A stretch of 64,000 bases of DNA. Origin: Perna viridis (Eukaryota). A program made the translations under genes and the position numbers. The first letter of the stretch is position 1; each line of letters starts with the position of its first letter. Positions 1 through 39,505 of the stretch are shown piece after piece. The stretch spans positions 29,797,626-29,861,625 of the forward strand of contig CM074516.1 of the NCBI GenBank assembly GCA_037379345.1, read 5' to 3'. Under the pieces are notes generated by a model. It had not been told where the DNA came from. It searched no databases and saw nothing but the letters and a program-made list of their open reading frames with translations.

Positions 1-1875
1 GCAAGGTATTAAAGATAATTCTTTTGAAATTAGGCAGATTTCGAAATCAGTAAATAAGTCTTTAGGGACGTTGCAACACTCCTTGAGGAACATGTCTCAA
101 CTGTTAATTACCCTTACTAATAACTTCAACACTTTGCATTCTAACCTTGTCCAACTGCAAAATGCAATCCAGTCATTGGTGGAAGGACGCATTTCACCCT
201 TTCTTATACCTAAACAAGTGTTTACTAAGACTTTACATAACATTCAATCCACTTTAACTAAATACTATCCAGGTTTTTATCTGACACATTTCCATGCCTC
301 TTATTATTATACAACACCCAACTTTATGTTCACTAGAAACCATTCCTCTATATATCACGGTACGATTTCCTGTATGTTCACATGTTTGTCCATTGCAACT
401 ATACAAAATCATTGCACTTCCTTTGCGGCTACTAACAAAAACCTCACTAAACATGCGACTAAGCTCTTTGATTTGCCTTATTTCTTAGCACTAACAAATG
501 ATCATGATTATTTCTTGCCATTGCAATCAGTTCACCTGACTAATTGCGTGCATGGCTCAACAATAATTCGTAATTTTAACATGGTATTAGTTCCTTCAAC
601 CAGCCTTCAATGTTCATCAGCAGTGTTCCACAACAATGTCAACCAGGTATCACAATTATGCAACTTTGGGTTTTTACAAAATCATTTTTAGCATAGTATT
701 ATTGAGTTAACATCAACATCGGTGCTTGTTTATGATAGTGAGGACATGTATTTAGATTGTCTTCAACACCAAAGAAGGATACCTGGGTGTACATTTTGCG
801 TTATTGATATACCTTGCAAATGCTCACTTTCTACAAGAAGTTTATATTTTTCTCCAAGGCTTGTTAAATGTTATAATTCAAGTCCTCATTTTTCTCTTTT
901 ACATCTAGTCAATCTTGCCTTGGTACAACAATTTTTCGATGAACAAAAATTTTCTAAGGTTCTTGGAGATACTTTATTTTCGACACCAGTTTACCTATCT
1001 ATTCCAATTTTTTCATTTTTATGAGCACAATATTTTAAGTGTTTTAGCTGCAGATGCAAAAACCCACTTAAATTTGAAGAAGATAGCGAACGCAGCTAAA
1101 GAGGATAAAATGATTTTTAAAACCTTATCAGAACCATTGTTGTCTGGAGAGATAAGTTTGAAATCAAAACAGCCATTTTATCTTTCATTTGTATGGGAGT
1201 TGCCAGTCTTTCTCTTTTCTCTTTCGCATTTTTTTTTGGGTAAAATCAAAAAGATGGCATTGTCTTTAACGGTTATGCAGCAAATGGCTAGTGTAAAATC
1301 TCAAAGTGCACCATCATTCATATATTATAAGCCAACTGATACACCTCAAGTAGAGCAAAATGTTATGAGCAATGTAAAAGAATTTTTAACGTCCGAATTC
1401 ACTTTGATACATGCTTCTGTTGTTCTTAGCATTTTAGTTTTGATATTTTTGTCGATTTTAGTTCTTTATTTATACAAGTCCAGGAGTATTCATTGTACAA
1501 AATTAATGTTAGAAGTTACTAGTGGCGGCAATTGTGTTGTCATCCCTATCCTCGAATTATCATTGTGCCCATCTTATTGTAAGTTCACTCGTTCAAATGT
1601 TGAAGACATTCCCTACAAATAAACTAGTTGTTGTTTGGTCTGAATTTAGAGAAACCAATTTGTTCACAAATCAGTCAGTTAATATACCTACTTCCCTACC
1701 CTGTAGTTTTATATAACTTTATAAGATGAACCAGATACTTCGACAACCCTTCAATACATATATATATGTGACACATCAGAATTTCGCTTCAGTCCTGAAT
1801 CCACCAGGAGATGTTGTTCAAAATGTAATAAAAACATCTGCAGTGAATTCTAATTCACTTTATCCATGTCTATGA
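1..1875 (+). pseudogene. env: env-like (class I fusion, errantivirus/baculovirus F-type) ORF of Gypsy element, 3' part, frameshifted; left-arm copy
   Basis: ORFs 71-691, 294-488, 722-1024, 915-1622 and 1522-1716 are frameshifted pieces of one protein with a heptad-like region, Cys-rich ectodomain (GCTFCVIDIPCKCSL) and TM segment (HASVVLSILVLIFLSILVLYLY). Reverse complement of 13906-15800. Confidence 0.75.
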
Positions 1876-2004
1876 ACTGATTTTTTTTGTTAGCAAATTC
1901 ACGATTCAGTAGTCGTCTTTAAATGTTTTTATCACATTCATAATACATTTTAGACAAATTCGTTTGGGAATTTAGACTTTAAGTAGAGTCATCTCTTCTT
2001 GTAG

Positions 2005-2677
2005 AGGTAAAATCGTTCGTTTACGCATCAAGTCGTGGTAAAAGTACCCGTGGCAAGGGAGGAATTAACAGTAAAGTTCGAGTTGTTCCTAGTGGCAAAA
2101 TTAGACAGTTATGCAATATGGCTGTACACGATCTTCAATCCGTGCCAGGAATCAAAATTGTTTACGTCTTTACCGGAATACCTGATATTTGTACCTTGAA
2201 AAGAGATAGAAGCTCTCTCTATGAAGAGAACTTTTTGGATATGGACAAAGATCATGTGAATCATTTTAAGAAAGAAATTTTATTTGTTCAAGAGAAAATG
2301 GAACAAATTGGTTGTAAGGTTGTTTTCTGTACCGTTCCTACTATAAACTTTTCAATGTGGAATGCACATAGACTGAAAATTATAAAAACAAAGATTATCC
2401 TTCCATGCAAAAGGCTCTGAATGATGCCTTACATACACAACATTGTTTTATTACAGATGTTAATTGCAAAAATGATGTTGTCACTCCCTTCGTCCACGCG
2501 GCTATTGTAAAGCAGAGAAAAGATGGGCATTTCAAATTTTCATATTCGAAAATGCCAGATGGTGTTCATCCATCACCAGAGTTAGCCGCTGCATGGGTTG
2601 CTAAGTTTAGTAAAGCTATTGACATAAATCAGCACAAACTTGCTTCTCTACTTGTACTTCTTATGTCATCTTTTTGA
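2005..2677 (+). pseudogene. SGNH/GDSL-hydrolase-like accessory ORF of Gypsy element (one frameshift ~2400)
   Basis: Frame open from ~1983: FVYASSRG (block I-like), VYVFTGIPD (block III-like), DGVHP (block V DxxH). ORFs 2118-2420 and 2405-2677. Confidence 0.6.
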
Positions 2678-3450
2678 TTCCGGGCCCTTGCAGAGGCGGT
2701 CGCCACAAAAGTGGTCATGTAATTCAAGTTGTTATGTATGAAACGGAATTCAAGGGCAACAACTGAGTTTAATTATCAAATATCAAGACATAGACATGGC
2801 TTTTTACACTCTATGATACCAAATTATTTTTGACGGTATCTGTTCTTTTTTTTAAATGTTTTTTTTTTTTACTGAAAAGAGACATAAGAAAAGAAGAAGA
2901 GTTTCTGTGGTTTAGACCAGGTTTATAGCATATTTTATAGCGCTCTTTTGAGCTAATGTATATGGTGTATATAAATGGCACTTTCTTTTTTTTTTATTCC
3001 CATATATTATATTCTTAAGTGACCCTGATACGTAGGGCTTACAATATTTTTTTTATATATGTATGTGTGTATGTAGTTGTTTGATAGTGACATTTTACGG
3101 TTAAGTTGCTGCTGTCCGTTGTGCTGTTAAGGCATTACAAACCGAACATTACCGATATAGTGACCCAGAACTGTGTTATCCGAAACAACGCCTTGGAAAC
3201 ATACCGAATAACCGTGTGCTTCATTTCATTCATTTTGAGGAGGTGATTCATTCTATGGATTTGTGATGTGAAACAGATGAAATTTGTGTTCAGAAGTAAA
3301 TCAATATGTGTTCATAGTGAAACATTCAGAGGAATGACTATTTTTGCTTTCAATAAAATTATTTTTCTGTTTATTTATATCATGAATATATTACGAATGT
3401 TTTCAGATGGTGCAAACTAATTTCGCTTTGGGGTCCAAAGCAGATGGGTC

Positions 3451-3460
3451 AGGAGGGAGT
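3451..3460 (+). promoter_or_regulatory. polypurine tract preceding 3' LTR
   Basis: AGGAGGGAGT immediately followed by TGTCATATAG; mirrored at 12324-12333 on the - strand. Confidence 0.65.
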
Positions 3461-5182
3461 TGTCATATAGTTCATTTTGATTAAAATTGATAAAGTCAAT
3501 TTCAATGTTGAAATTTCATTTTTAAGTTGTAATGTTCCAAATTTAGAATATTTAGAGTTTAATTATAGGTATTTGAACATTGAGATATTTTAATAATGTA
3601 TAAAGTTTTAGTTTTATTCTCCCACAGATGGCAAAAAGCTGTTTTCAATTAAATTAAGTGGCAAATGATTTCTTGTTTGTTCTGAAGATAAATTATCTAA
3701 AATTAACCAGGCTTTGGGCCCAGTTAATGAGATAGTTGTAAGCTTAATTACTTGATTGCGCAATTGAATCAGCTCTATTGCGCCAAGCCGGACGCTTAAT
3801 CAAGTGGTAGATAATTTGGACAATAGGCAATTTACATATCTTATAAGTGTTCCTACAGTGTCAAAAAGTAGTTTTAGGCACACATTTAATTGAAATGTAT
3901 CCGCCGTTTCCTAGCAAAATAAGATAACTTAATTTTGATTGGCTCTCATCTGGAAAATAATGCAAAAGCGAGGAATTTCTTTATTTGCTGGTATAGGGTC
4001 ACTTTTGAGTTAACCAGCAAATAAAGAAGTTCAAAATAATTCACTGTTTTCCAGGTGAGACAATTTTCATTATTCACTCTAGAAATTTAAAGTTATGGTA
4101 CTTTTGATGTTCAAATTAATTGGAAATTAGGTTTTAGTTTTTCTCTATTTAATTTGCTTGGTTCAGTAATTTGATTTTGTATTCACTGACTAAACTGTGA
4201 ATTTGAAGGATAACTTTGGCTACTTCTAAATGATGCTAAAACATGCAAAAGCCAGACATGTGTATGCAAGTATTTTATTAAGTTTTATTAAGAAATTTGG
4301 CTCTGTTGAATTATTTGATACTTTCAATATATTAAAAATAAGAGTTGTTATATCGATGATAGATTTTCTTATTACCATGTAAGCGTCCTTGGTTTAGCAA
4401 GTTCCAAAACATTTCAGGTAGTGTGTTTTATGGCATAGGTTGATTTTGAATATTCTCGCATTCTTTTATTTGTCTCATAATTTTGATTTATTCAATTGTG
4501 TAAATATGATCGTAATGTTGTTTTAATGAAACTGTATACATAAAACATGTTAAAGCTTATAATTGGAAACTTATGCCGGCCAAATAAATGTCAGAGTATT
4601 TTCATATAGGCCTAGTTGCGTTTTAAATTATGAAGTGTTAAGTTTGACCGTTCAAGAAATCAAGTGATTTGTCAAATTCAGAAAGTTTTTAATAACCATA
4701 GTAACGAAGATCTGATTGGTTAAATAGTTGAATTTAAATGTTCATTCTTATGCAATATTTGTTATACTTATGCATCTTATATGATATTGCTTATTATTGT
4801 TATAGCGTCACTTTTGAGTTTGCCAACAAATAAAGAAGTTCAAAATAATTCACTGTTTTCCAGGCCTCTCAGAAGACCCAAAGTCAGTTACCCAGTAACA
4901 CACAGTGCCATGAAGCCATACAGTCAACGCTAGCGTCTGTCTGTCTGTAACCTCTACTAGCTATTCCCTCACACTAAACAAGAATAATTGTAGTGTGTCA
5001 GTATTTACCAATTCTAACACGCAACTTGTACATGTAAGACTTTTTTCTTTGGTGGTATGTTACCTGGTTGTATTAATTTATTAAGATTTGTGCGTCACGA
5101 TAAGTGACCTGACTCTCTGTACATCAAATGTCTTCTTTTTACCTTTATTTTATCTAAATATCTAAATTTGGGAAAAATATAT
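3461..5182 (+). repeat. 3' LTR of Gypsy element (left-arm copy)
   Basis: Starts TGTCATATA after the PPT. The right-arm copy ends ATATATGACG, an inverted match to the start; this copy has lost the last ~4 nt. Confidence 0.55.
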
Positions 5183-6859
5183 ATTATAGCTAAATAATAT
5201 TTCAAAATCGAGTATTTGACATCACATTACATGAAACTTATTTCATATATACCTCATTATCAAAATTATCTATAATATGAATTTCATCACAAACATCTAG
5301 CCCTCCACTGGACAGATTAATTTATAGTTCCGTATGATATATATACATATATGGCATACGTTAAAAGCGATCTTAGTTAGCGTCTAGTTTTAACATCCGG
5401 CTTAATTGGCCTCCCATTTTATCTTACAGAATGATACAGATTTTTTTGTCACAAGAACCTCTGTTCCCATTTGATGGGTTAATTTAAAATCATAATATGC
5501 AGCATAATATTCGTGGGGCACATGTTGTTAGCAATTTTCGCTATTGTGCGACTGGAGGTAGTTTCTCATTGCACGACAACGTGTGTAACTTTAAATTAGT
5601 CTATCTAGTCCCTTAACATAGAAATCGAAGATTTAAACAAATATCTACTCAGTAAATTATACCACAATTAATCCTACTGGACACAAAATTGATTTTTATC
5701 AGTGTTGTATATGCGTACTAGTAACACTCGGGTATACCTTATAAGAATAACCAACTGCGATGAGGTCTTAAGGGTAGTCTTGAAAACCCTGGAATCATAT
5801 AAGAGCCATATTTTTTCTTATACAGTAACGTCCGTATGTATAGATGAAACGACAAAAATTTAAATTTTCATGATTGTAATGAGCTACTCATTCAATACAC
5901 TGCAGGGTATCATATTGAACGAACGGCAAGTTTTTCTACCTGTAAGTCGTGCAGGTATCAAGATTATGTAATCGGGCACTCCTTGCATCTTTATCTGTGC
6001 ACTTGGACTGAAAAAAACTATGGATTTGACGGTCTGTAGACTGTGCGGGCCTTAAATTGCAAATCTGAAACACGGATTAATCGAAAATGAAATAAAGATA
6101 CTAACGCCAAGGTTAGATGAAAAACATTCACCTATAATGCGAATCTGTTATTTCATTCTGTCATTTAAAATTTGTGACTAATAAGATTTTTTTGTAAATT
6201 ACTGCTTGATTTAGTCTTCCAATGTACGTCCTACGTGCATTACATTGAGCAGGTTTGATTTCGATATTTTTAGCGGAATATGTTCTGCCATTCAGTCTAT
6301 GCCGAGATTCGCCATTATTTGCACAAACTTTTTAATTTATCAACGGCCAAATGTGATTACATTGTATTTTTTAGGCAGTACAAACGTTATAGTATGAGCG
6401 CTTACATAAATGTTCGAGTTTGCAATCATTTTTACATGTAAATCAAATCCCATAGAGCAAAAATACATACGATATTACGATATTAAAGTTCAATAAGTTA
6501 TTCTCTGATGAAGACTGTGTATTTCCCCCATTTATATAAATGTCTAATAGTCGTGGAAATAATGTATACTTTACAAGGAAGATATTTCATCTTACGCTTT
6601 TAAAAGAGCATACATTTATCGTGGAACCGTACATAAAAGACTAAAATTTAGTATAGAGTATAAGTCTTATATTATAATCTTATAAATTGTAAATACTGCA
6701 TGCATCCATATACTCTCACTCCGGCGTCCCGTTCATTAACGGTGAAAAAAAAATAATGAGTTACCAGTTACTTAATAATTAAGTGTGGCCTGTAATCATG
6801 TAATATGAAATAATACTATTTGAAAGAGTAATCAAGGGAACCAAGGTTATGACATGGAA

Positions 6860-9047: not shown

Positions 9048-10596
9048 AACTACCTTCTTTTTATATTCTCGAGTTTATTACCTTTTTTAATCTAGAACCG
9101 ATTTTGCAAATTTATTTATGTTTTCTTTGTAATAACAGCAGGTCGATGAAGTATGGTAGTTTACCGGGCTATCGCCGCGGATGGTAGTTCAAGCCGAGCA
9201 AGCGACAGAACCGGGAAACTTCTCCGAGCCTTGCAAAGCTACAACTACGCAGATGGAGCGACTTACGATGGGGCTACTACAAAAAATGCCCCTTTTTTGC
9301 TTGAGACATTTGAGGTGATTTTTGGATATCCATATAAATTAAAAAGAAATTACAAGTTTCTGCTACATTTTTAAAGATACCAAACAAATATGTGAAATAT
9401 TTATTTCTAATTTAATATAATTATGCATAAATATAATTCCAAAGTTGCTTATATTCATGATATTGGTAACATATTATTATAAATCAAATACACATTTTGG
9501 TTTAGTAGTAGTGGCAATGTTCCCTCTGTATGCCAGACATCTGAGAGAGCGCATTCATGCACATGTGTGTGTTACGGTTGATACATGTAAATGCTGTTAT
9601 TATTCTAACAAAAAATCTCATCAAGAATAAAGTCTTCCCATTGCGATTCAAGAGCAGATCCGAGAGGGTTGGGGTTTGTTTCAGAAATTTTATCGGCTAT
9701 CATTGCTCATTTCTGACAATTTTTGAAGAAAATAAAACAGGGAACTAAGCAAAACATAAAGTCAGATCAATGTCCCTAAAGTAAAAAAAATATCCGCATG
9801 CACCCAAACCTACACTGCTAATCACCAGTATACATCAAAGTGTCGTGGTCACGGTCAATGATGTGACATGACACCCTTCTGTGTAATGGATACAACCATG
9901 TTACAATAAACAGGACTTAGTAGAAACGCATGTTGCTTAATTGTATACATGTACCATTAATTATCGACCAAATGCATATAAAAGTTTAGGGTACATAAGG
10001 CGTTGTCCATGATGGCGTCTATGAAAAGAAATTTAACATTTGATAATGGAAAAAAGTATTAAATATATAGTCTGTACAATAAGTAATTTAAAAACATATG
10101 CCTGCACTTGTACTGTCCAACTTTGCTTCTAAATTACAAACTGAATATATCAAATTGAAAAATCTACAATATACCCTACATATTTATTAAGTTTCTCACC
10201 TAAATAAATCATGAATTCACCTACTATTCTAGTCGGCAGAACTTGCATCGAAAACCTCTCTCGTAGTGACGATGGTCACTATAATTGGTTTTAAGTAGTT
10301 GAGCACGATTGTGACATTTAACCAGACTCTTGCAAAATGATTTGTGGCGATGAGGTATCAAATTTTAAAATGCAGACTATATATATATATAGTGCGGCAT
10401 ACGGAACTATAAATTAATCTGTCCAGTGAAGGGCTAGATGTTTGTGATGAAATTCATACAGTCGGATGGACCAACCGACAAGGTGATTCCAAGTTCCAAA
10501 TATTATAGATTATTTTGATAATGAGGTACATATGAAATAAGTTTCATGTAATGTGATGTCAAATACTCGATTTTGAAATATTATTTAGCTATAAAT

Positions 10597-12323
10597 CGTC
10601 ATATATTTTTCCCAAATTTAGATATTTAGATAAAATAAAGGTAAAAAGAAGACATTTGATGTACAGAGAGTCAGGTCACTTATCGTGACGCACAAATCTT
10701 AATAAATTAATACAACCAGGTAACATACCACCAAAGAAAAAAGTCTTACATGTACAAGTTGCGTGTTAGAATTGGTAAATACTGACACACTACAATTATT
10801 CTTGTTTAGTGTGAGGGAATAGTTAGTAGAGGTTACAGACAGACAGACGCTAGCGTTGACTGTATGGCTTCATGGCACTGTGTGTTACTGGGTAACTGAC
10901 TCTGGGTCTTCTGAGAGGCCTGGAAAACAGTGAATTATTTTGAACTTCTTTATTTGTTGGCAAACTCAAAAGTGACGCTATAACAATAATAAGCAATATC
11001 ATATAAGATGCATAAGTATAACAAATATTGCAAAAGAATGAACATTTAAATTCAACTATTTAACCAATCAGGTCTTCGTTACTATGGTTATTAAAAACTT
11101 TCTGAATTTGACAAATCACTTGATTTCTTGAACGGTCAAACTTAACACTTCATAATTTAAAACGCAACTAGGCCTATATGAAAATACTCTGACATTTATT
11201 TGGCCGGCATAAGTTTCCAATTATAAGCTTTAACATGTTTTATGTATACAGTTTCATTAAAACAACATTACGATCATATTTACACAATTGAATAAATCAA
11301 AATTATGAGACAAATAAAAGAATGCGAGAATATTCAAAATCAACCTATGCCATAAAACACACTACCTGAAATATTTTGGAACTTGCTAAACCAAGGACGC
11401 TTACATGGTAATAAGAAAACCTATCATCGATATAACAACGCTTATTCTTAATATATTGAAAGTATCAAATAATTCAACAGAGCCAAATTTCTTAATAAAA
11501 CTTAATAAAGTACTTGCATACACATGTCTGGCTTTTGCATGTTTTAACATCATTTAGAAGTAGCCAAAATTATCTTTCCAATTCACAGTTTAGTCAGTGA
11601 ATACGAAATCAAATTACTAAAGCAAGCAAATTAAACCTAGAAAAGCTAAAACCTAATTTCCAATTAATTTGAACATCAAAATTACCATAACTTTAAATTT
11701 CTAAAGTGAATAATGAAAATTGTCTTACCTGGAAAACAGTGAATTATTTTGAACTTCTTTATTTGCTGGTAAACTCAAAAGTGACCCTATACCAGCAAAT
11801 AAAGAAATTCCTCGCTTTTGCACTATTTTCCAGATAACAGCCAATAAAAATTAAGTTATCTCAATTTGCTAGGAAACGGCGGATACATTTCAATTAAATT
11901 TGTGCCTAAAACTACTTTTTGACACTGTAGGAACACTTATAAGATATGTAAATTGCCTATTGTCCAAATTATCTACCACTTGATTAAGCGTCCGGCTTGA
12001 CGCAATAGAGCTGATTTCAATTGCGCAATCAAGTAATTAAGCCTACAACTATCTCATTAACTGGGCCCAAAGCCTGGTTAATTTTAGATAATTTATCTTC
12101 AGAACAAACAAGAAATCATTTGCCACTTAATTTCATTGAAAACAGCTTTTTGCCATCTGTGGGAGAATAAAACTAAAACTTTATGCAATATTAAAATATT
12201 TCAATGTTCAAATACCTATAATTAAACTCTAAATATTCTAAATTTGGAACTTTACATCTTAAAACTGAAATTTCAACATTAAAATTGACTTTATCAATTT
12301 TAATCAAAATGAACTATATGACA
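10597..12323 (-). repeat. 3' LTR of Gypsy element (right-arm copy)
   Basis: On - strand TGTCATATAG...ATATATGACG termini, preceded by PPT at 12324-12333. Confidence 0.6.
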
Positions 12324-13099
12324 ACTCCCTCCTGACCCATCTGCTTTGGACCCCAAAGCGAAATTAGTTTGCACCATCTGAAAACATTCGTAATATATTC
12401 ATGATATAAATAAACAGAAAAATAATTTTATTGAAAGCAAAAATAGTAATTCCTCTGAATGTTTCACTATGAACACATATTGATTTACTTTTGAACACAA
12501 ATTTCATCTGTTTCACATCACAAATCCATAGAATGAATCACCTCTTCAAAATGAATGAAATGAAGCACACGGTTATTCGGAATGTTTCCAAGGCGTTGTT
12601 TCGGATAATACAGTTCTGGGTCACTATATCGGTAATGTTCGGTTTGTAATGCCTTAACAGCACAACGGACAACAGCAACTTAACCGTAAAATGTCACTAT
12701 CAAACAACTACAGACGCACATACATATATAAAAAAATATTGTAAGCCCTACGTAGCAAGGTCACTTAAGAATATAATATATGGGAATGAAAAAAAAGGAA
12801 ATGCCATTTATATACACTATATACATGAGCTCAAACGAGCGCTATAAAATATGCTATAAACCTGGTCTAAAACACAGAAAACTCCTCGTCTTTTCTTATA
12901 TCTCTTTTCAGTAAAAAGAAACATTAGAAAAAAAGAACAGATACCGTCAAAAATAATTTGGTATCATAGAGTGTAAAAATCCATGTCTATGTCTTGATAT
13001 TTGATAATTAAACGCAGTTGTTGCCCTTGAATTCCGTTTCATACATAACAACTTGAATTACATGACCACTTTTGTGGCGACCGCCTCTGCAAGGGCCCG

Positions 13100-13776
13100 T
13101 AATCAAAAAGATAACATAAGAAGTACAAGTAGAGAAGCAAGTTTGTGCTTATTTATATCAATAGCTTTACTAAACTTAGCAACCCATGCAGCGGCTAACT
13201 CTGGTGATGGATGAACACCATCTGGCATTTTTCGAATATGAAAATTTGAAATGCCCATCTTTTCTCTGCTTTACAATAGCCGCGTGGACGAAGGGAGTAA
13301 CAACATCATTTTTGCAATTAACATCTGTAATAAAACAATGTTGCGTATGTAAGGCATCATTCAGAGCCTTTTGCATGGAAGGATAATCTTTGTTTTTATA
13401 ATTTTCAGTCTATGTGCATTCCACATTGAAAAGTTTATAGTAGGAATGGTACAGAAAACAACCTTACAACCAATTTGTTCCATTTGCTCTTGAACAAATA
13501 AAATTTTTTTCTTAAAATGATTCACATGATCTTTGTCCATATCCAAAAAGTTCTCTTCATAGAGAGAGCTTCTATCTCTTTTCAAGGTACAAATATCAGG
13601 TATTCCGGTAAAGACGTAAACAATTTTGATTCCTGGCACGGATTGAAGATCGTGTACAGCCATATTGCATAACTGTCTAATTTTGCCACTAGGAACAACT
13701 CGAACTTCACTGTTAATTCCTCCCTCGCCACGGATACTTTTACCACGACTTGATGCGTAAACGAACGATTTTACCT
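13100..13776 (-). pseudogene. SGNH-hydrolase-like accessory ORF (right-arm copy)
   Basis: ORFs 13361-13663 and 13176-13376 are nearly identical to the left copy, with an extra frameshift near 13230. Confidence 0.55.
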
Positions 13777-13905
13777 CTACAAGAAGAAATGACTCTACTT
13801 AAAGTCTAAATTCCCAAACGAATTTGTCTAAAATGTATTATGAATGTGATAAAAACATTTAAAGACGACTACTGAATCGTGAATTTGCTAACAAAAAAAA
13901 TCAGT

Positions 13906-16376
13906 TCATAGACATGGATAAAGTGAATTAGAATTCACTGCAGATGTTTTTGTTACATTTTGAACAACATCTCCTGGTGGATTCAGGACTGAAGCGAAAT
14001 TCTGATGTGTCACATATATATAAGTATTGAAGGGTTGTCGAAGTATCTGGTTCAACTTATAACGTTGCATAAAACTACAGGGTAGGGAAGTAGGTATATT
14101 AACTGACTGATTTGTGAATAAATTGGTTTCTCTAAATTCAGACCAAACAACAACTAGTTTATTTGTAGGGAATGTCTTCAACATTTGAACGAGTGAACTT
14201 ACAATAAGATGGGCACAATGATAATTCGAGGATAGGGATGACAACACAATTGCCGCCACTAGTAACTTCTAACATTAATTTTGTACAATGAATACTCCTG
14301 GACTTGTATAAATAAAGAACTAAAATCGACAAAAATATCACAACTAAAATGCTAAGAACAACAGAAGCATGTATCAAAGTGAATTCGGACGTTAAAAATT
14401 CTTTTACATTGTTCATAACATTTTGCTCTACTTGAGGTGTATCAGTTGGCTTATAATATATGAATGATGATGCACTTTGAGATCTTACACTAGCCATTTG
14501 CTGCATAACCGTTAAAGACAATGCCATCTTTTTGATTTTACCAAAAAAAAAATGCGAAAGAGAAAAGAGAAAAGAGAAAGACTGGCAACTCCCATACAAA
14601 TGAAAGATAAAATGGCTGTTTTGTCAGGCCAACTTGATTTCAAACTTATCTCTTCAGACAACAATGGTTCTGATAAGGTTTTAAAATCATTTTATCGTCT
14701 TTAGCTGCGTTCGCTATCTTCTTCAAATTTAAGTGGGTTTTTGCATCTGCAGCTAAAACACTTAAAATATTGTGCTCATAAAAATGAAAAAAATGGAATA
14801 GATAGGTAAACTGGTGTCGAAAATAAAGTATCTCCAAGAACCTTAGAAAATTTTTGTTCATCGAAAAATTCTTGTACCAAGGCAAGATTGACTGGATGTA
14901 AAACAGAAAAATGAGGACTTGAATTATAACATTTAACAAGCCTTGGAGAAAAATATAAACTTCTTGTAGAAAGTGAGCATTTGCAAGGTATATCAATAAC
15001 GCAAAATGTACACCCAGGTATCCTTCTTTGGTGTTGAAGACAATCTAAATACATGTCCTCACTATCATAAACAAGCACCGATGTTGATGTTAACTCAATA
15101 ATACTATGCTAAATATGATTTTGTAAAAACCCAAATTTGCATAATTGTGATACCTGGTTGACATTGTTGTGGAACACTGCTGATGAACATTGAGGGCTGG
15201 TTGAAGGAACTAATACCATGTTAAAATTACGAATTATTGTTGAGCCATGCACGCAGTTAGTCAGGTCAACTGATTGCAATGGCAAGAAATAATCATGATC
15301 ATGTGTTAGTGCTAAGAAATAAGGCAAATCAAAGAGCTTAGTCGCATGTTTAGTGAGGTTTTTGTTAGTAGCCGGCAAAGGAAGTGTAATGATTTTGTAT
15401 AGTTGCAATGGACAAACATGTGAACATACAAGAAATCGTACCGTGATATATAGAGGAATGGTTTCTAGTGAACATAAAGTTGGGTGTTGTATAATAATAA
15501 GAGGCATGGAAATGTGTCAGATAAAAACCTGGATAGTATTTAGTTAAAGTGGATTGAATGTTATGTAAAGTCTTAGTAAACACTTGTTTAGGTATAAGAA
15601 AGGGTGAAATGCGTCCTTCCACCAATGACTGGATTGCATTTTGCAGTTGGACAAGGTTAGAATGCAAAGTGTTGAAGTTATTAGTAAGGGTAATTAACAG
15701 TTGAGACATGTTCCTCAAGGAGTGTTGCAACGTCCCTAAAGACTTATTTACTGATTTCGAAAGCTGCCTAATTTCAAAAGAATTATCTTGAATACCTTGC
15801 AACAAGTTTGATGTTTTATCATCGACTACCTTTACAAAAGATGAAAGGTGATCCCCATGTTGCTGGAGAGCTTGTGTAATTTCTCTAGTTCTAACATTTA
15901 CAGCATTAGTATGTTTTGCTTACCACTCAACATCCGACATTGTTGCCGTTCGAAATAAACCTTTGGCTAAAGTGCATTTAAATGGTAAAAGTGACCTCGA
16001 TAACCTTCTACCATGGAAAATATTTGACTGAGGAACAAGGGTACGTATAGTCTTATTTGCTTCTTTCAAATCATGAGTCACAGACGTATGTAAATGACTA
16101 ATAAACGGTACCATGCTGTTGAACTGTGAGCAATTCGTTTGTGTGGCATTGCAGAACTCTGTTTGTGATAATGACAAGACTCTGGGTAAAGGAATCATAA
16201 AAATATGCAGCCATGTCTCTTGTGCGATGAAAAGCTTTGACTCTGGGAGAAACACTACTCCGTAATTCAATCTCTGAATCACACCTTGTGGTGATAGGAC
16301 AACACTTGCGGTGTCACAACTTATGATGACAAGGGGAACTAGAAGGAGACAGCTCCAAAAACTCAAGGAAGGACAT
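13906..16376 (-). pseudogene. env: env-like fusion glycoprotein, full-length but frameshifted
   Basis: Signal-peptide-like start (SFWSCLLLVPLVIISC), QRLNYGVVF, furin-type site RRLSR followed by fusion-peptide-like SLLPF..TLAKGLF.TATMSDV, heptad region, Cys-rich domain, TM segment. Confidence 0.8.
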
Positions 16377-16928
16377 ACAATGATATCAAAAGAGAAAATT
16401 TGATATGTTAATAATTACTTCAAATGACTGTAGCCAACGTCTCAGCATACAATCTAGCACTATGAAACAAGCAGTTAGAAACTACAAGAATACTTCAAAA
16501 GCATTTCCAATTTTCTGGGATTGAATCATCAATTTACCCTTAGTCATAGACAATTAACCTATATTTGAAGCAAATGTCTCAAAGCGCGCAATTCTTCTTA
16601 GCACCATTACCAACAGGCATTGTTGTTTAAGTTGTACAAGTGAGTCAATACACTATAAATGTTCAAACATGAAATTTGGTTACAACGTTGCTAGTTGCAC
16701 TCAGATTTTTGGTGTCAAGTACCACACTCTAACACATAAATCAATTGGTGGTGTCTCAAAACCACTCTCGAAACACAAAATAAACATGTGGTGTAGCAAT
16801 ACCTCAATGAAAATGAAATGAATTAATTACTCTTCATCAACAAACTTAGGTGAATAGAGCCCAAGAGAAACATAAAACACCTATTAAATATGGTTAGAAC
16901 GAGCCTGCACACTTTAACTTAAGAGTAA

Positions 16929-19230
16929 CTAGAGACTGCAAAAACTGTGAAAGCTAAGATACTCTCTATCGAAAATGACTTTTCCTACGTTTGCCCTTTT
17001 TGTCCATTTTGAGTCAATGACAGCTAGTTGATCATCATCAAAAGATTCATCTGGCTCCCATGAGCATGAGCCATCTTCCCAATTGACTAATATTTCTCTA
17101 CGACCACCCTCAAATCTTCCCCTAACAAGTTTCTTTATGCGATACTTCACAGCGGGATCAACAGGAGTTTGAGATGTTGGAAGGTTTTGTGAAACAGGGG
17201 CAGGTTCATTATCATTATCACTCAAAGATTCAATGTCTGCCTCAGGGTCATTATCAATCTGTGGAGGATTGTTAACCCACAAGTTTCTCCTTATTGGATC
17301 AGGGTGCATGTAAAGTTGCAAGTTTGTTGCATTGATAAGGAAAGCCTGACGCTTTTGATCTTACTCTTCGAATTCCATATGTGAAATTTGGTCCAATTTC
17401 CTCAATGCGATAAGGACCATTAGCCTTGTCACAGAGTTTTCTAGCTTGACCTTTGGGAAACTTGTGGTATTTCAACAATACAAGGTCTCCTATAGCAAAT
17501 CGTTGAGTTCTTGCATTTCTATCATGCCTGACTTTGTTCTTTTCCTTTTGTGCACTTTCATTCTGAGAAGCAATTGTATGATTCTGAATCAGCCACAACA
17601 TAGCTTTTACCTGACCTATGTATAATATCAAACAGAAGCTCCTGTAATTTTAGCATCCATCTTGCTAAACGACCTGTGTGTTTGGCTGTCTTCAACCAAA
17701 TGGGACCCCGATGATCAGTTACAACAGTGAAATGGTTATGTGAGATGAAATGTCGAAAAGTCTCTACACCTTTAAGAATAGCTAAGAGTTCCTTCTCTGC
17801 GGTTGTGTAATTTCTCTCCTCTTTAGTCAAGGTTTTGTTCCCATAAGCAATAATATACTCCTATTTTTCATCATCTAATTGACCAGGAACGAAGCCAGCA
17901 GCAACATCTGAACTATCACATGTAAGAATGAAAGGTCTCTCGAGATCTTTGTAGCCAAGAATAGGGGCAGGGACTAAGGAATGCTTGAGAGTTTCAAAAG
18001 CCGTCTGACACTTAGGTGTCCACTGGAGCCTAACTGGCTGATCTTTGTGAAGGAGAGCATTCATTGGAGCAATTATTTTGTTGAAGTCCTTGATAAACCT
18101 TCGATAGAAATTTACCATACCCAGTACTGAATGTAACTGTTTTTGAGTTTTAGGGACTGGGACATTGTTGCCTCTGTTTTCTCATGATCGACCTTGACAC
18201 CTTCACGAGATATGATGTAACCTAGAAATTTCAATTCCTGCACTGCAAAATTAGCCTCATGTAACCTGTCAAAATCCTGGGACAAATGACTGAGATGTTC
18301 TTCAAATGTATGAGAGAAAACCAAAATATCATCCACATACACCAAGAGAAATTTCCAATTTAAGCCCCTAAGAACATCGGACATCATTGCCTGGAAAGTA
18401 ATAGGACTTTTCATCAGACCAAACGGCATGCTTGTGAATTGGTAGATTCCTGACTGAGTGGTAAAAGAACTTTTATGCTTGCTCTCGTCAGACAATGGCA
18501 CTTGATGGAGACCAGATTTTAAATCAACACAAGAAACGTATTGAGCCTTTGCCTCCCAAATGGCGTCGAAACCCCTGTTAAGATGAGGTAGAGGAAAAGA
18601 TTGGGGAACAGTGACAGTATTTAATTTTCTGTAGTCAATTGCCATCCTCATTTCACCAGACTTTTTGAAGCACATGACTACTGGTGAAGCTCAATTAGAA
18701 GTAGATGGTTCGACAATACCAAGCTTTTGAAACTCTGCGATCTTGTTCCGCCCTACCTTTACGTGCTTGCCTATAAGGAGCCGATCTGATTGGTTTTGCA
18801 CCTGAGATAGTTTCAATGTGGCGTTGATAGAAGAGAGTGCAAACAAGTTGATCCATTGATGTTGCAAAGACAGATTTGTTCTTTTGTAAGAAGGCCAAAA
18901 GTTTCCGTTTTTCCTCAGGCGATCAACAAGAGGTTTCCAAATCAAAGGATAACCCACTAGAAGAAACCGAAGGTGTAGAACTGGAACGAGTTTGAGTCTT
19001 TGACGAACTAGGACTTGTGTCATCTAGAGAGTAGATTTGTTCCGTTTGAACAGATGAGATCTTAGCAACTACTTTGTGAGCCCTAATTTTGACATCTGAA
19101 TTTGTTGGATTTAGAACTCGTATCACAGCCTTTCCTTTGTGAACTTTAACAAGACACTTAGCTATAAATGAATTTTCAGGTAGCTGACATTTAGCCTCAG
19201 TTGGTTCCAAGAGAATTGTACTATTGTCAG
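16929..19230 (-). pseudogene. pol: Gypsy pol: RT, RNase H, integrase C-terminus (GPY/F) and chromodomain-like tail
   Basis: RMAIDYRKLN, DLKSGLHQ, MPFGL, YVDD; FILTCDSS, RNYTTAEKELLAI, TDHR; KLCDKANGPYRI; YRIKKLVRGRFEGGRREILVNWEDGSCSWEP. Multiple frameshifts. Confidence 0.9.
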
Positions 19231-22200
19231 CTTGTAATTTTTATGTTGTGTATGGTATATACATTCCATTGACGCATCTTGTATTTCAGTAGCGGTCAGT
19301 TCAACATTGTAGCATTTCCCCTTTCTCTTTAATTTGTTCACGAATCCCAAAACATAAGACGTCACACGCAATAGTTTTTGAAATGACGAATATCGGCTAA
19401 TGTCTATGATGTTGCTAATTCCACGAATATGCTCTGCTTGTGTGTGTTGATTTTTCACGGATTTTGTCCTTCTTGTTCGGTTTCTGCAGAATTCTCTTGG
19501 GTTTGTCCATTCATGAGTTTTTGATTCATCCACAATCCATTATTGACATTGCATCTATAATTCATTATGCATAAATTTGTCGGTGGACATTCCACGGTTA
19601 AGTAGTTAGGCGGGATTCGATTCCATCGGACAAAGGTTCCATTCCTATCCAGCGGTGATTTCTTTGATTTTCGGGACTCTGTTCCTCACGAATAATATTT
19701 CTCTGACTTCAGCCAACTTAACACTATCTGACTGTTGCTCCAATGTATTCAAAGTCTAAATATTCCGTTAGATGCGTTAGCAAACGGACTCCTAAAACTG
19801 CGACCTTAAGTTCAAGTTAAGGGATTGTCATGACGCTACTTTCTTTCTAGCCATTCTATAAGTAGCTTGGTTGTCGTGTACTAAATACACACAAGTGCCG
19901 TACGCTTTCATACTTACGTCCGTGACGATATCCAGTTTTGTTCCTTTGTTTTCTGAATACTTGTCGAAATAGTAGCGCGGAAATTCAAGTTGAGTACATT
20001 CATTTGTGTCATGTCCTATTTTATGTCCATTCTGTTACGATCTTTGATGGTAACAGTACGCCCCAATCTGCTTTGCTTTCCTACATTCCCTGCATTACGA
20101 TCTTGCTCCTAACTGTAACGGGCCTAATGACCCTTAACTGATCAAATATTTGAGATGATTTGTGTAAGACTTGTCGTTTCGTTACGTTGCAGGTCGTTGA
20201 ATTTGAATTTTGCGCAAATATCAATATATCACGTTTAAAGTCCCATCTCAAACCTAGAACATTGATGATTTTGTTCTTCTCCAATACGTTTTCCTGTATG
20301 GCATGTTCTCTAAGTGGTTGATAGTTGGATGCCTACGGGCTTAAGTTAAGCCTGTTTCTGTAAAAGGAATACATGACGCATCAATGGTTGATTGATTGTT
20401 GGAGTTTAACGCCCGAGTAGCAATATTTCCGCTAAATACAGACGGTGAACATGAAGTGGATGATAAAATGAACATGAAATAATGATGAAATGAAAAATGG
20501 GATGGGGCACAAGGATAAAGGGGTCGACAAATTTTGATTGCCACTGGAAATAGGGAAAGGTGGGTAGGGTCGGGCAATTTAGCCTCCTGTGGCGGAGCCC
20601 TGTGGTTCCTACTACGGGAGAATACCACAGTAGATTTCTTTAACGTGCGAGGAACGTGGTATCATCAAAGAATTTGATCCAATCTTCCTTGTTCTGAAAA
20701 TTCGAAATTACGTTGTCAACATACAAGTCCTTGTGTATAGTTTCCGTCCATTGTTTCCATTCTCTTTCAAATGTTTGTAAATGACGGCATGGAGTATAAA
20801 TGGTGAGCACGGTGCTCCGAATTGGACGGACTTAAATCTGTATGTAGTCAGTTTACTTGTGATCTCTCAACCTATGAAATCTTGCTCCTCAACTTTCTCA
20901 AAAAAGCTTCTTCGATCTTGATCGGCAATGGTATCTTCATAACTCTGCAGAATAGTTTCTTCTCGACTGAACCTTCTGACTATGTTCACAATTCATAATC
21001 AGTTTATTGTCCGGTAGTGGCGGCTTTTCTTCTATCCAGGGTAACTTTAGACTTGCTACAAGTCTAGGGTAACTTTGCAAAGTAACGGTAATCATGGTAA
21101 CTAAATACGATTCTTCATACTGCTCTTGGACTTTGCTCTCTATAGATGTACTGATTTAATTTCATATCTTGCTGCTTCTTCTCTCCAAACCTCTCAGGAT
21201 CAACTTCTTCTGTTTTGTGCATGACTAGAACGTTCATCATTGACGTAGTTTGTGCTCCATGCACTGACTTCTCTGCCAACCAACCGGACAACATATAGCA
21301 GCCCTTTGATTTACAGGCTTCTGGACCATTTTCTCTTTTTACTCTATCTTCGACTACGGGTCAGTAATAATCAGCTCCAATTAACATCAAAATATGTGGG
21401 TCTCTGTGGGTAATTAGATGCGCTAACATCAATCCAGTTAAATGTCTTAGATTTTCTGTTTTGTAGTTGTATATTTTTCGTCGGCGCTGCGATTTCCGGA
21501 ACGATCAATACTTTCAGTTTAACTTTCCATCATCCGTAATTAAGTGTATGGTGTCGGTTTTCAGGTGTCGAACCTTCATACTTTGTTTAGTATCACCAAA
21601 TCCAGACAAGTTCACGATCTTGGTTCCACCTTTTTTTTAATTCGAGTTATTCAAGTTAACTCCTCGGTAATAAAGGACCTCTGTGCTTTCATATACTGTG
21701 TGTCTGAGCTAACTTGTGTTACAGCAGTTTTGAGTAGAACATTTGTATGCGTCTTTGTATGAAGAATAGTGCCATAGATTCATGCGTACCCGCCTTGCGT
21801 TGAATAGTGCTAATGTTCACGTTTTTCTCGCTGTGTTGGCTATTCTATTCAGATATGTAATACAGGCTAGTATGGTGGCGTTTTTTACGTTTTTCCACAT
21901 GTTTGTTTTCATTTGCAGTTTGAAATTATATGATGGCCAAGACAATTGAAAAAGACGGTCTTTTTTACACTTTTTTCTCTCTTTTGTGTCAGTGATCTTT
22001 TCACAGTTAACGGATGCTTGTCATTACAAAATGCACATACAGGGGACAATTTGCATGCATTTGTATCAGGTTTTCTGATTTAAATTCCCCAGGATGACTT
22101 ACGTGACTTTGCGTTCGTTATCTGACATAGTATCTGTACCAGCTTCCATAATAACTGATGAAATATGCACTATCTCAGTTCATCTAATGTCCAGTTAATT

Positions 22201-22250
22201 GTAAGAATGCTACATATATCTCATGGTAGTTTCTCTAGACAAATAAGAGA
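19231..22250 (-). mobile_element. BEL/Pao element A, truncated inverted copy
   Basis: Reverse complement of ~26090-29113; VLGLRWD, NPA..LxRG, IDISRYSSFQKLLRVTSYV. Confidence 0.85.
20385..20662 (-). mobile_element. SINE (5'-truncated) inserted in BEL element A, left-arm copy
   Basis: (CAAT)n-type tail, flanked by CATCAA direct repeats; homologous to 27682-27959 and 51891-52135. Confidence 0.65.
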
Positions 22251-22256
22251 ATTACG

Positions 22257-24824
22257 ATGGAAGTAGTAATCGTACGGAAGATTGCATCCCCGATTCAAAT
22301 GAAATCGCGTCCTCATCGTGCCTTAAAGGGTTACTGCGCATCCAATATCAGCCAAAGAAGATTCACAGGAATTAGAACATTAGAACTCACAAATTCTAAA
22401 CTACTGCAGATTCGGAGAAAACATTCCTACACGTACAGTTTACGTAAAGAACCGATTTATTATTAGATACCTCCGGCTAAATTACTCAGTAGATGCGAAA
22501 AGCATATTCACGACTTATCATTTTCCCAACAAGGGAATAGATGCTTTTAACGTAGGCAGAAATATTAGAAAATAGATTGTACGTAAACATCATTTTGACG
22601 AGCTTCGATGATGAAGTGAAATATTACCATGAGTCTCAAAATTCATTGAGCAAAGGTGAATTTAACTTACGCACATATAATACAAACAGCATGAAGCTAC
22701 AAGACATGTCAGAAAGAGCGAACACTTTAGACACCGATAAACAAACTAAGGTACTCCGATTGAAATGGAACACGAATACTGACATACTGATGTTTCAACA
22801 AAATCAAGACAAGATACAACAAAAGGGAAATACCAAGCCTTAAATCCTTAGAGAGTCGTCAACGAATTTTGATCCATTAGGTCTACTCAGCCGGATAATA
22901 GTGAAATTCAAAATCTTTATTAAGTCATTATGGAGACACAATTTCAAATGGAATCAATTACTTCCAGTATATATCGAAGCAGAATGGAGAAAATTAGGAT
23001 GGCCCTAACCGAAGTTTTGAACCAGTTTCGATAGGAGTCTAATCATTGCCAATGAGGATACACTGACTCTTCATGTATTTACCAATGCATCAACAAAAGT
23101 GTACGAGGCATGCGACTATGTACAGGCCAAAAGTTCACCAAGTGCTAAATTGATAATGGCAAAAATCGAGGTGTCCCTATCAAACATATAACTCTGCCCA
23201 AACTGGAACTGAATGGAAGTGTTATTGATAACAAGACACGTATCCCACAACTTACTTGGAATTGACAAAATGTATTTCAGTGTGATGGCCAAACAACAGA
23301 AACAGTTCACTCATAATAGGGTCATGGAAATAAAAGAACTTTTCGATGAAAATCATTGGATGTATTGTCCGACAGCAGCCAATCAGGCAGATCTACTTAG
23401 ACGTGGTATTTCAAGCGAGAATTCGACAAACTATACACTTTTGCTCAATGAACCGCGATGGTTAACTGATAAACAGCAATGGCCGAAATGGGATAACAAC
23501 AGTGCTACAGCTACCTATACGGAATGCCTTAGCAACGAGAATCTTGATTCACAGGGTGATATCTGAAAAGTCATAGATATCAACAAATAAAGCAACTGCC
23601 GTATGTTGATACGAATTACAGGATACGTTATGCGATTTATTTACAATTGTAGAGTGAAAAAAGATACCACGCTACAAAAAAAAAAAAAACTATTCAAAAT
23701 AGATGAGTTAAATAATGCAATACGACACAAAGTATATACAAGACACTCAACGGAGGGCATACAGAGACGAACTAGCTTGTATTATACACAAAATGTGCGA
23801 ATTGATACGATAGTTGAAACTTTTACTCGACGAACACGACATTCTACTAAGCAGTGGTCGTATAGAATACACAAATGTTTCAGTAGAATTTGTTACCTAC
23901 CAGAGTTCGTTTAAAAGATTTGATAATTGATTCAGGTATCAACAGCACGCTTAACTACATTCAGCAAACATTTTGGATTCCGAGATTGAGAAATGCTGTG
24001 AAATCAAAACTGAACAAATGCATCATATGTCGTAAAGTCATCGCAAAACCTTATTCTACCCCTGACATTCGGCCCTTATCAAAAGAACGAGTTGAGGAAA
24101 ACACACCATTTAACATCACAGGAGTAGACTTTACAGTAGCGCTTACCGTACTAAACAAATACAATGAGGAATTAAAGGTAGGTATACGTTTGCCTTTTCA
24201 CTTGTGCCGTAACTAGAGCGTTGCACCTAGAATTAGTTCCGAACCTTACAGAAAAGTGCTTCATACGGTGCGTTTTACAGTTTGCGATTTTATGCAACTC
24301 CTATACTGTTAAAAAGCGGCACAACAATGCAGAACTCTTTGGGTCGGAAGATGATTGAAGCGATTATTAGGACTAACTGAAACGTCATTTTAAAAAGTGC
24401 TAGGACGTGCGCTTGTGGATGAGTAAACTCTTAGAACTATTCTTACCTAGATCGAAGCAACATGAAAAGACATACTGATCACACACCTTGTTACCGACAG
24501 TCGAGATAAAGGACTGCTCACCTTCTTTATTGATGTATACTTAGGTGGTACCGTATTTGCGAGATAACATTACAATCAAAAGACAAATTGATATAAATTC
24601 ACATCTTTAACTTAATAAACATGCATCGAAACAAAGAGAGCTTCTTGACAGTTTTGGATCACGATGGAAAGGAGAATATTTAGTGTCACTCGGAGACTAT
24701 CATCAAGGGACAGGTGTTTGTTTAAATTCATGACGTAGGAAAGCGAGTATTTTGAAGAGTTGGAGTCATACAGGACGTCATCACTGAAAAGATGGACACG
24801 AGATGCGATGGTCCGTACGAGGAC
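22257..24824 (+). mobile_element. BEL/Pao element B relic (RT, RNase H, integrase, C-terminal DUF5641-type region)
   Basis: KVLRLKWN, FDPLGLLS, LHVFTNAS, LPKLEL, YCPTAANQADLLRRG, FWIPRLR..CIIC, TGVDFT, RWKGEYLVSL. Heavily disabled. Confidence 0.85.
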
Positions 24825-26085
24825 TATGTTTGATAGGGCCGACTCGATTCTTTGCCATTATCAATTTTGCACTTGGTGAACTTTTGGCCTGTACATAGTC
24901 GCATGCCCCGTACACTTTTGTTGATGCATTGGTAAATACATGAAGAGTCAGTGTATCCTCATTGGCAATGATAAGACTCCTATCGAAACTGGTTCAAAAC
25001 TTCGGTTAGGGCCATCCTAATTTTCTCCATTCCGCTTCGATATATACTGGAAGTAATTGATTCCATTTGAAATTGTGTCTCCATAATGACTTAATAAAGA
25101 TTTTGAATTTCATTATTATCCGGCTGAGTAGACCTAATGGATCAAAATTCGTTGACGACTCTCTAAGGATTAAAGGCTTGGTATTTCCCTTTTGTTGTAT
25201 CTTGTCTTGATTTTGTTGAAACATCAGTATGTCAGTATTCGTGTTCCATTTCAATCGGAGTACCTTAGTTTGTTTATCGGTGTCTAAAGTGTTCGCTCTT
25301 TCTGACATGTCTTGTAGCTTCATGCTGTTTGTATTATATGTGCGTAAGTTAAATTCACCTTTGCTCAATGAATTTTGAGACTCATGGTAATATTTCACTT
25401 CATCATCGAAGCTCGTCAAAATGATGTTTACGTACAATCTATTTTCTAATATTTCTGCCTACGTTAAAAGCATCTATTCCCTTGTTGGGAAAATGATAAG
25501 TCGTGAATATGCTTTTCGCATCTACTGAGTAACTTAGCCGGAGGTATCTAATAATAAATCGGTTCTTTACGTAAACTGTACGTGTAGGAATGTTTTCTCC
25601 GAATCTGCAGTAGTTTAGAATTTGTGAGTTCTAATGGTCTAATTCCTGTGATGTCATTCATTAGTTCCCAGTGTCATCTTTGCAACTACAATAATGTCTC
25701 TCCCGCATATTCAAATTACATCGGCATGGTTCTTAACATTGTTCATATAGGTTAATCCGAGTATTTCTAGATTCCAGAACTTTTCTAAGTCAAATCTCAC
25801 GACTTCTTGGTCGATTAGAATGTTCATCATTGATGACTAGCCTGATTTTGCTTTCTTTTTTCGTCATACGAAATATCCCAGCTTCGACTTCGCTGCAGTT
25901 GGTCCCTCACCTCTCACAATTTTGTCCTATACCGCTGACCACTAGAATCTGACCTATCAGTAGGGATGTATTGAATCTTCTTTGGCTGATATTTGATGCG
26001 CAGTAACCCTTTAAGGCACGATGAGGACGCGATTTCATTTGAATCGGGGATGCAATCTTCCGTACGATTACTACTTCCATCGTAA
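24825..26085 (-). mobile_element. BEL/Pao element B, truncated inverted copy
   Basis: Reverse complement of 22257-23188, plus ~320 bp (25649-25972) deleted from the left copy. Confidence 0.8.
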
Positions 26086-26089
26086 TTCT

Positions 26090-38886: not shown

Positions 38887-39505
38887 TTGTGTAACCTACT
38901 TCAGTATTAAAAAAAATGTTTTATTCATTCTAGACTCTTAACCTATCATACTTTTAAAAAATCGCGTTTTAACTTTGACCCCAAACATCGTCTGCTTAAA
39001 TACAAAGAAAGAAAAAAAAACACATAAAACCATACCCCCCCAAGAAAAAAAAAAGAACAAAAAAAAGAAAAAAAACAGTTATTCCATGACTTTTCTCACA
39101 TTATTAGTAAGGGAAATGAGGGTATGATTGAAAAAAGTCAGTTTATACCTCCTTCATTGTTTCAAAGTGGTGCATTTTACAAAAGATTCACTATTGTCGC
39201 CTATGGGAAATAAAAAAGTACCATTCTACTTTATTGACTGATCAATAATTACCCAAGCTTTCTTCCCTTTCTCAATGATGTTTTCATTAATGTTTTGACC
39301 ACACCGTAGTGTTAAACTCTTAACAAAATGTGGTTTTCCACGATGAAAAAAATTCAAAAACATTTCAACACTTTTCCTACTTTATGAGTTATATGGAAGT
39401 TGATGTATATATGGAAACGTAGTTGTTTACTAATATAAATTATTTATTTCTTTGTAGGTTTAAGTATTTTTAGAAGATAGAAATAATGACCGAAATGATT
39501 ACACA

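Follow-up and report, generated by a model that had tools for sequence, protein, structure and literature searches.

A decayed Perna viridis Ty3/Gypsy element whose envelope gene appears to encode a second, matrix-like membrane protein

A 64,000-nucleotide stretch of Perna viridis DNA (GCA_037379345.1, contig CM074516.1; hereafter the window) holds a Ty3/Gypsy element on its minus strand, from 19230 down to about 10560-10600, and raises the question of what kind of envelope protein, and what lineage, lies behind a pol gene ending in a chromodomain, an env gene and a further open reading frame (ORF). The order along the minus strand is reverse transcriptase (RT), RNase H, integrase C-terminal module, chromodomain, env, ORF4, 3' untranslated region (UTR), polypurine tract and long terminal repeat (LTR). 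We think it fairly likely that this is a decayed, 5'-truncated copy from a low-copy bivalve family of Ty3/Gypsy 'ancient errantiviruses', with an env polyprotein that includes a tethered matrix-like protein, a cassette of jingchuviral type and an accessory esterase. The chromodomain-plus-env layout is already known; the proposed matrix-fold env tail and the esterase-like ORF after env are the new part. All features of the element given below lie on the minus strand.

The envelope protein and its tail

The window env is an F-type class I fusogen. It opens with a signal-peptide-like hydrophobic stretch (16316..16369), which in this copy lacks a preceding in-frame ATG, and runs through an ectodomain to the first transmembrane helix (TM1) at 14545..16315, as aligned to the intact relative P0001. 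This part contains a fusion-peptide region, heptads and a cysteine-rich portion, with the RRLSR cleavage site at 15995-16009; it is 62-63% identical to P0001, in pieces, and is interrupted by two or more stops and by several shifts of frame. PF12259 is matched at E 3.7e-4 in the window and at E 1.9e-14 in P0001. Among 1,534 candidates, 26 proved to be env relatives (32-63% identity; PF12259 in nine), and the five that carry a species name are all from Mytilus or Ruditapes. A quick tree, made for placement only, puts the window env within a 15-row group containing Mytilus proteins; the glycoprotein of contig L004 (see below), P0026 and P0185 sit on long branches, and P0014 was omitted as a mis-joined gene model. 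Both results agree with the invertebrate, probably molluscan, lineage suggested by the first-pass annotation of this DNA, and make a bivalve host, probably a mytilid-like one, likely.

Fold comparison points the same way as the profile match. The P0001 model (pLDDT 69, pTM 0.46) matched 244 PDB chains at E<=0.001, and all among the matches listed are F proteins of respiratory syncytial virus or human metapneumovirus, bearing out the fusion-protein homology that had been proposed. TM-scores are low (0.21-0.27), since the placement of domains in the monomer model is uncertain. The env profile searched against PDB sequences gave just 10 weak coiled-coil matches at E<=1. Against BFVD, the ranking is headed by Hubei myriapoda virus 8 glycoprotein (G), an abalone herpesvirus protein and nine more chu-related or unclassified long glycoproteins, with baculovirus and paramyxovirus F ranking below those chu-related or unclassified proteins.

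The fusogen is only part of the protein. Intact relatives are 760-850 aa long, and PF12259 spans only residues 19-602 of P0001. Beyond TM1, relatives have a basic patch, a short hydrophobic stretch, some 30-35 residues, a second helix (TM2) and a 110-aa domain. The corresponding features of the window are an internal signal-peptide-like stretch (14480..14539), in which basic residues, a short hydrophobic core and small residues precede a putative cut; TM2 at 14308..14362, from hydropathy in relatives and mapped from P0001; a predicted cytosolic, beta-rich domain at 13989..14290, with one frame change, which fold searches liken to the matrix fold of Mononegavirales; and a C-terminal LYPCL, a YPxL-type late motif, at 13909..13923. 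Parts of this tail are 57% and 53% identical to P0001. The signal peptide, RRLSR site, fusion peptide and transmembrane helix described earlier are thus present, but env is longer than had been claimed, with a second helix and a predicted cytosolic domain, and it is broken: the relatives have every mark of such a fusogen, from the signal peptide, the RxxR site and the fusion peptide to heptads, cysteines and the transmembrane helix, and in the window these are present but disrupted.

The tail domain encoded on the relative contig L001 was modelled at pLDDT 92. In fold searches with a 116-aa tail model, Mononegavirales matrix proteins filled the top ranks in two libraries and with two programs, and the matrix matches span Borna-, paramyxo-, pneumo- and filoviruses. 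The top folds are Borna disease virus M, paramyxovirus and pneumovirus M and filovirus VP40, and the tail is about the size of Borna M and a single domain. A coronavirus M/ORF3a-like fold, suspected at first, was not among the fold matches listed, and searching the ESM Atlas with this domain yielded leads below 0.9 only. Going by these models, env appears to carry a second, membrane-anchored protein with a matrix fold. The domain is encoded inside env behind TM2, neither as a separate gene nor free of a transmembrane anchor, and so we say that the tail works like a matrix and do not call it a canonical M. It is possible, although we consider it unlikely, that the element is a known chromodomain-clade errantivirus whose tail is indeed a second membrane protein, or just a long tail, with a beta-rich domain that is unrelated to matrix, resembles it through the chance likeness of small sandwiches and serves in trafficking, as a chaperone or in receptor binding. 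A chance likeness would not be expected to bring one viral protein class to the top of both libraries with both programs and across all of these virus groups. The positive-inside bias and late motifs described below also suit a role in budding, and the ectodomain separately points to negative-strand viruses.

Returning to a membrane-anchored matrix-fold protein, its proposed topology draws on the distribution of charge. Basic residues before and after the helix number 6 and 61 for TM1 and 8 and 75 for TM2 across 23 relatives. Because they follow both helices, a membrane crossing is required between TM1 and TM2, and an internal signal would provide it; the signal-like stretch is kept in all 23 relatives listed, a judgement made by eye and from the positive-inside count. 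Several observations weigh against the proposal as a whole. The tail shows no clear depletion of sequons (0.90 vs 1.15 per 100 aa), and the AlphaFold model of P0001 merges TM1 and the signal-like stretch into one helix. A profile comparison of the env tail with that of the L004 glycoprotein was negative, with one of the alignments dominated by ectodomain columns. Finally, no ORF4 match occurs in the 690 bases past env of L001, and ORF4 is thus not universal. The single continuous helix and the sequons within the tail domain, together with the short hydrophobic core, would fit an env that has the matrix fold but is not cut at the internal signal, either as one chain or with the helix after TM1 on the cytosolic face and the domain outside. 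We regard this as improbable, given the basic residues C-terminal of both helices, the small residues seen by eye where expected before the putative cut in the relatives listed, and a clearly hydrophobic segment at this place in the L004 glycoprotein.

Of the 23 env relatives listed, 10 have the motif YPx[LI] within their final 20 aa, and it occurs nowhere in 12,650 ectodomain residues. Late motifs are found in VP40 and other Mononegavirales matrix proteins, and motifs of the YPxL type, to which LYPCL belongs, recruit ALIX/ESCRT; as evidence for a role in budding they are indirect. In our proposal, intact env would be a polyprotein in which a signal peptide leads an F-type fusogen, cut at RxxR by a furin-type protease to free the fusion peptide and anchored by TM1. 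The internal signal after TM1 would re-enter the membrane, and signal peptidase would release a second, small type I membrane protein with about 30-35 aa outside, TM2 and the 110-aa cytosolic matrix-fold domain, ending in YPxL in one subgroup. Such a tethered protein could line the inner membrane face, collect the fusogen and Gag capsids and recruit host ESCRT for budding. Observed are the order of the genes, the homologies, the decay, the predicted folds and the motif counts; the topology, the cleavages, the role in budding, the direction of transfer and the role of the esterase are inferred. To our knowledge, a retroviral-type matrix is not recognised in Ty3/Gypsy Gag. If the proposal is true, a matrix-fold domain in env or G is one testable answer both to how Ty3/Gypsy capsids acquire a membrane and to the matrix gap of jingchuviruses; the Gypsy lineage would have gained budding as well as fusion, and the domain would show the matrix fold in a membrane-tethered form, with a possible bearing on how that fold arose. 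In the literature within reach, which leaves out subscription papers, bioRxiv supplements, Repbase and eLife figures, we found no domain of this fold in the env of errantiviruses or in the G of jingchuviruses. The parts available of PMC12440569, 10.1101/2024.12.15.628590 and 10.1101/2024.11.25.625296 describe neither an env or G matrix-fold domain nor a bivalve SGNH ORF after env.

Negative-strand virus relatives of env

A match to PF00946 (E 7e-69) marks contig L004 as a negative-strand RNA virus; its order is G, probable N, small ORF and L, and our scans of viral contigs gave this one negative-strand virus and no others. Against the env ectodomain profile its G, of 1,017 aa, scores 121 bits. 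Hydrophobic segments at 696-714, 722-740 and 817-835 precede a tail of 180 aa in this G, a layout like that of env. The small ORF between N and L (L004:5396-5776) has adjacent PTAP and LYP motifs at its end, late-motif-like and on a separate protein.

The long class I glycoproteins of jingchuviruses are the top fold matches of the whole env, and several of them match the tail domain too; here we take Hubei myriapoda virus 8, megalopteran chu-related virus 119, Shayang fly virus 1 and Mogami virus to be jingchuviruses. They differ from the element in being RNA viruses with L and N genes and without RT. Their glycoproteins are 730-1235 aa long, with tails that cannot be aligned to the env tail by sequence, and the tail matches listed do not include the G of the myriapod virus. 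The Jingchuvirales profile of the ICTV gives GP, NP, L and unknown ORFs, with matrix unlisted and the virion unknown (PMC10770922). In the part of the Viro3D paper available, aliusviral class I glycoproteins are described as unusually long, and of their extensions only N-terminal ones are discussed (PMC12583693).

The simplest direction of transfer is capture from a virus of this kind, given that the matrix fold typifies negative-strand viruses and that jingchuviral proteins are the nearest matches of the ectodomain. We infer that the env cassette, which would be common to the long jingchuviral glycoproteins, was most likely taken from a jingchuvirus-like negative-strand RNA virus. If true, the nearest source of env is a negative-strand RNA virus and not a baculovirus, whose F lacks the second helix and the tail present in the window env family. 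We lean slightly towards a broader view, in which errantivirus env and long jingchuviral G are one fusogen-plus-matrix polyprotein, a Gypsy lineage captured this entry-and-exit module and has a cytosolic esterase as an accessory, and the 'missing' jingchuvirus matrix is the membrane-tethered, Borna-M/VP40-like C-terminus of G.

The abalone herpesvirus protein, A0A145VUZ2 (801 aa, uncharacterised), ranks second among the BFVD structures when all of env is compared, with 804 aligned columns, and is not among the env-tail matches listed. This modelled likeness hints at a fusogen exchange with a mollusc herpesvirus.

The hydrolase-like ORF after env

ORF4 (13123..13780) starts about 130 bases past env and encodes an SGNH/GDSL-like hydrolase (SSRG ... 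GIPD ... DGVHP), assigned by homology and motifs and broken in the window. A representative search found 491 relatives at E<=0.001. In the 106 that are 200-300 aa long, 98 keep the block I Ser and 99 the Gly of block II, while the block V Asp is present in 103 and the block V His in 105. Block III has Pro in 65, Cys in 30, Thr in 5 and Asn in 4; the oxyanion-hole Asn is thus mostly missing, and for this reason we call the protein SGNH-like. PF00657 is matched by 12 of 72 members (above the cut-off in P0185), the ORF4 profile matched GDSL-like proteins in the PDB, and none of the 106 relatives has a hydrophobic N-terminus. An SGNH ORF after env had been read from the sequence at first pass, and these data uphold it.

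ORF4 is part of the element, since DNA depth is level over pol, env and ORF4 (about 3x that of single-copy contigs), one contig of a diverged copy links the LTR start, UTR and ORF4 end, and the Mytilus gene models P0040, P0185 and P0032 fuse ORF4 with chromodomain and env pieces. That it should be no working part of the element, but an SGNH sequence of host or passenger origin or an RNA-binding domain without enzymatic activity like Oskar OSK, is very improbable: its absence past env in L001, the lost block III Asn, a weak OSK match in 1 of 72 members, a host-like multi-SGNH protein among the matches and a genomic context established for few of the 491 relatives would fit such an origin, but its place inside the element between env and the polypurine tract, the multi-copy depth, the tie to an LTR, the Mytilus fusions and an almost invariant Ser, Asp and His stand against it. 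The host-like protein, P0121 (2,135 aa), has several tandem SGNH-like repeats related to ORF4 and is possibly a cellular relative or a domesticated copy.

As an accessory to the matrix-like env, ORF4 would encode a Ser-Asp-His hydrolase of the cytosol; an esterase with lipid or acyl groups of the assembly membrane as its targets is the likeliest role. It is not in every relative. The GDSL ORF of rotifer LTR elements gives a precedent for a retroelement esterase: in the part of PMC5408684 available, Vesta carries a GDSL ORF3 in place of env, and L2/CR1/RTEX elements also carry esterases. The hydrolase of bdelloid rotifer Vesta resembles ORF4 as a retroelement GDSL/SGNH enzyme and is there proposed to act at membranes. 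However, it has S, G, N and H intact and replaces env, whereas the window ORF4 is a fourth ORF beside env and lacks the block III Asn. Within the same reach of the literature (short of subscription papers, supplements and Repbase) we found no SGNH ORF after env in bivalve elements, nor env with an esterase as a fourth ORF.

Pol, classification and state of the window copy

The order of pol is that of Ty3/Gypsy. A segment upstream of RT (18923..19230, from sequence and domain search) ends at the truncation and leads into RT (18112..19023; YVDD motif; PF00078, E 9.6e-27), with one stop and frame changes, and RNase H (17558..18181; PF17917, E 1.4e-31), with one stop; the pieces were translated with X at stops for the domain searches. 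These matches and the F-type env confirm an env-bearing Ty3/Gypsy element. The integrase core is deleted, and RNase H joins the integrase C-terminal, SH3-like (GPY/F) module (17389..17574; PF24626, E 0.007) near 17580, where contigs of other copies hold about 1.3 kb extra at 17587. The deletion also interrupts the region of the 'mini' bridge domain after RNase H. The C-terminal module is 40% identical to that of P0040, a Mytilus coruscus gene model (E 3e-7). P0009, another Mytilus gene model, fuses a Ty3 capsid with the same env family.

The chromodomain-like end of pol (16990..17150) held up. Searched against PDB sequences with a limit of E 10, the pol tail gave 30 matches, all of them chromodomains (cpSRP43, CBX, Rhino), the best at E 7e-4. 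Clear chromodomains occupy the same place in the relatives P0032 (E 4e-6) and L001 (E 8.6e-9), in the latter immediately ahead of an intact env. For these reasons we take the window chromodomain as real but divergent on sequence evidence; its Pfam Chromo match, E 0.16, falls under the cut-off. A homolog search with the pol tail gave 105 candidates, none at E<=0.01. The domain would steer integration to chromatin. Contigs from two DNA runs skip 440 bases at 17019-17460, losing most of the sequence between the integrase tail and the chromodomain.

The first-pass annotation had seen in the chromodomain and the F-type env a union of normally separate lineages. This does not stand, as Chary and Hayashi (eLife 2026; PMC13524379) describe a clade of cnidarian, mollusc and annelid errantiviruses, all with a chromodomain, that already combines both. 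Their chromodomain sheet scores 12 of 19 mollusc elements as positive, and these errantiviruses are basal to the chromoviruses, in a neighbouring clade. In the part of their table available (30 of 46 mollusc rows), all are ENV_F, five are from Mytilus californianus and LTRs reach about 1.85 kb. Both marks of the clade, F-type env after pol and a chromodomain after integrase, are found in the window element, which resembles the published ancient errantiviruses also in its bivalve host, Mytilus being among theirs, but unlike them is decayed. It shares the F-type env with insect errantiviruses (gypsy, ZAM), although its named env relatives are bivalve, and the chromodomain after integrase with chromoviruses. 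PMC13524379 covers the env ectodomain only, and its main text is silent on matrix, cytoplasmic or late domains, SGNH and esterase. The complex genome suggested at first pass finds support in an env with an apparent second membrane protein, ORF4 and a long UTR.

The 3' UTR (12334..13122, about 0.8 kb) has no ORF of at least 80 aa and ends in a polypurine tract of nine purines (12325..12333), one base before the LTR, both as had been described. The sole LTR in the window is the 3' LTR (10557..12323, about 1.73-1.77 kb), with a TG start at 12323, from a depth step and motif search. Of the LTR of about 1.7 kb proposed earlier, the inner border is supported by jumps in DNA depth at 12323 (32 to 676 and 11 to 132), but the outer end at 10597 has an equally good candidate in 10557. 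Each is an 8/9 inverted match to the LTR start; 44 such matches occur in the window against 31 expected by chance, which rules them out as proof of an LTR end. The candidate at 10557 retains the terminal CA and is found in both window copies. Inside the LTR, a 67-bp direct repeat (94%) lies at 10919-10985 and 11728-11794, spaced 809 bp. The element had been placed at 10597..19230: 10597 is thus one of two candidate borders, and 19230 is a truncation against a Pao/BEL fragment. Gag, the start of protease, the primer-binding site and the 5' LTR are all missing, whereas in other genomic copies (contigs 92-93% alike), examined through DNA reads and contigs aligned to the window, sequence continues upstream past 19235.

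Every ORF of the window element has stops or frame changes and none is intact, and this copy is unable to make any of the element's proteins. From 4 of the 24 listed sequencing runs aligned to the window, two same-species RNA runs of 10 and 13 million reads gave 39 and 42 aligned reads, mainly in the LTR, with env and ORF4 almost bare and no read 99% alike. The two RNA samples thus show no sign of transcription of the window copy, and the intact, expressed copy sought after the first pass is not this one.

Positions 1..5351 (plus strand) are an inverted duplicate of 10378-15800, spanning the 3' part of env, ORF4, UTR, LTR and flank, and also broken (96.4% identity over 5,429 columns; mismatches 1.5-3.6% by region). 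It extends about 200 bases past either LTR-end candidate, and the shared flank rules out a second independent insertion and makes it a duplication or a mis-joined haplotype. The Pao/BEL fragment (19231-23188 and 24825-29113; PF05380) is itself a 99% inverted duplication. Together with the 96% Gypsy 3'-end duplication it forms two adjacent large palindromes, which are either true fold-back duplications or mis-joined haplotypes.

Elsewhere in the window, which has no tRNA in its 64 kb, a 332-aa open frame at 39464-40459 (plus strand) has no Pfam match at E<=0.001. A 21-bp tandem array (54187-54839) precedes a host HELZ2-like gene on the plus strand (54750-62075), with a 1,290-aa open frame carrying RNB and OB_HELZ2 and, later, an AAA_11 helicase exon.

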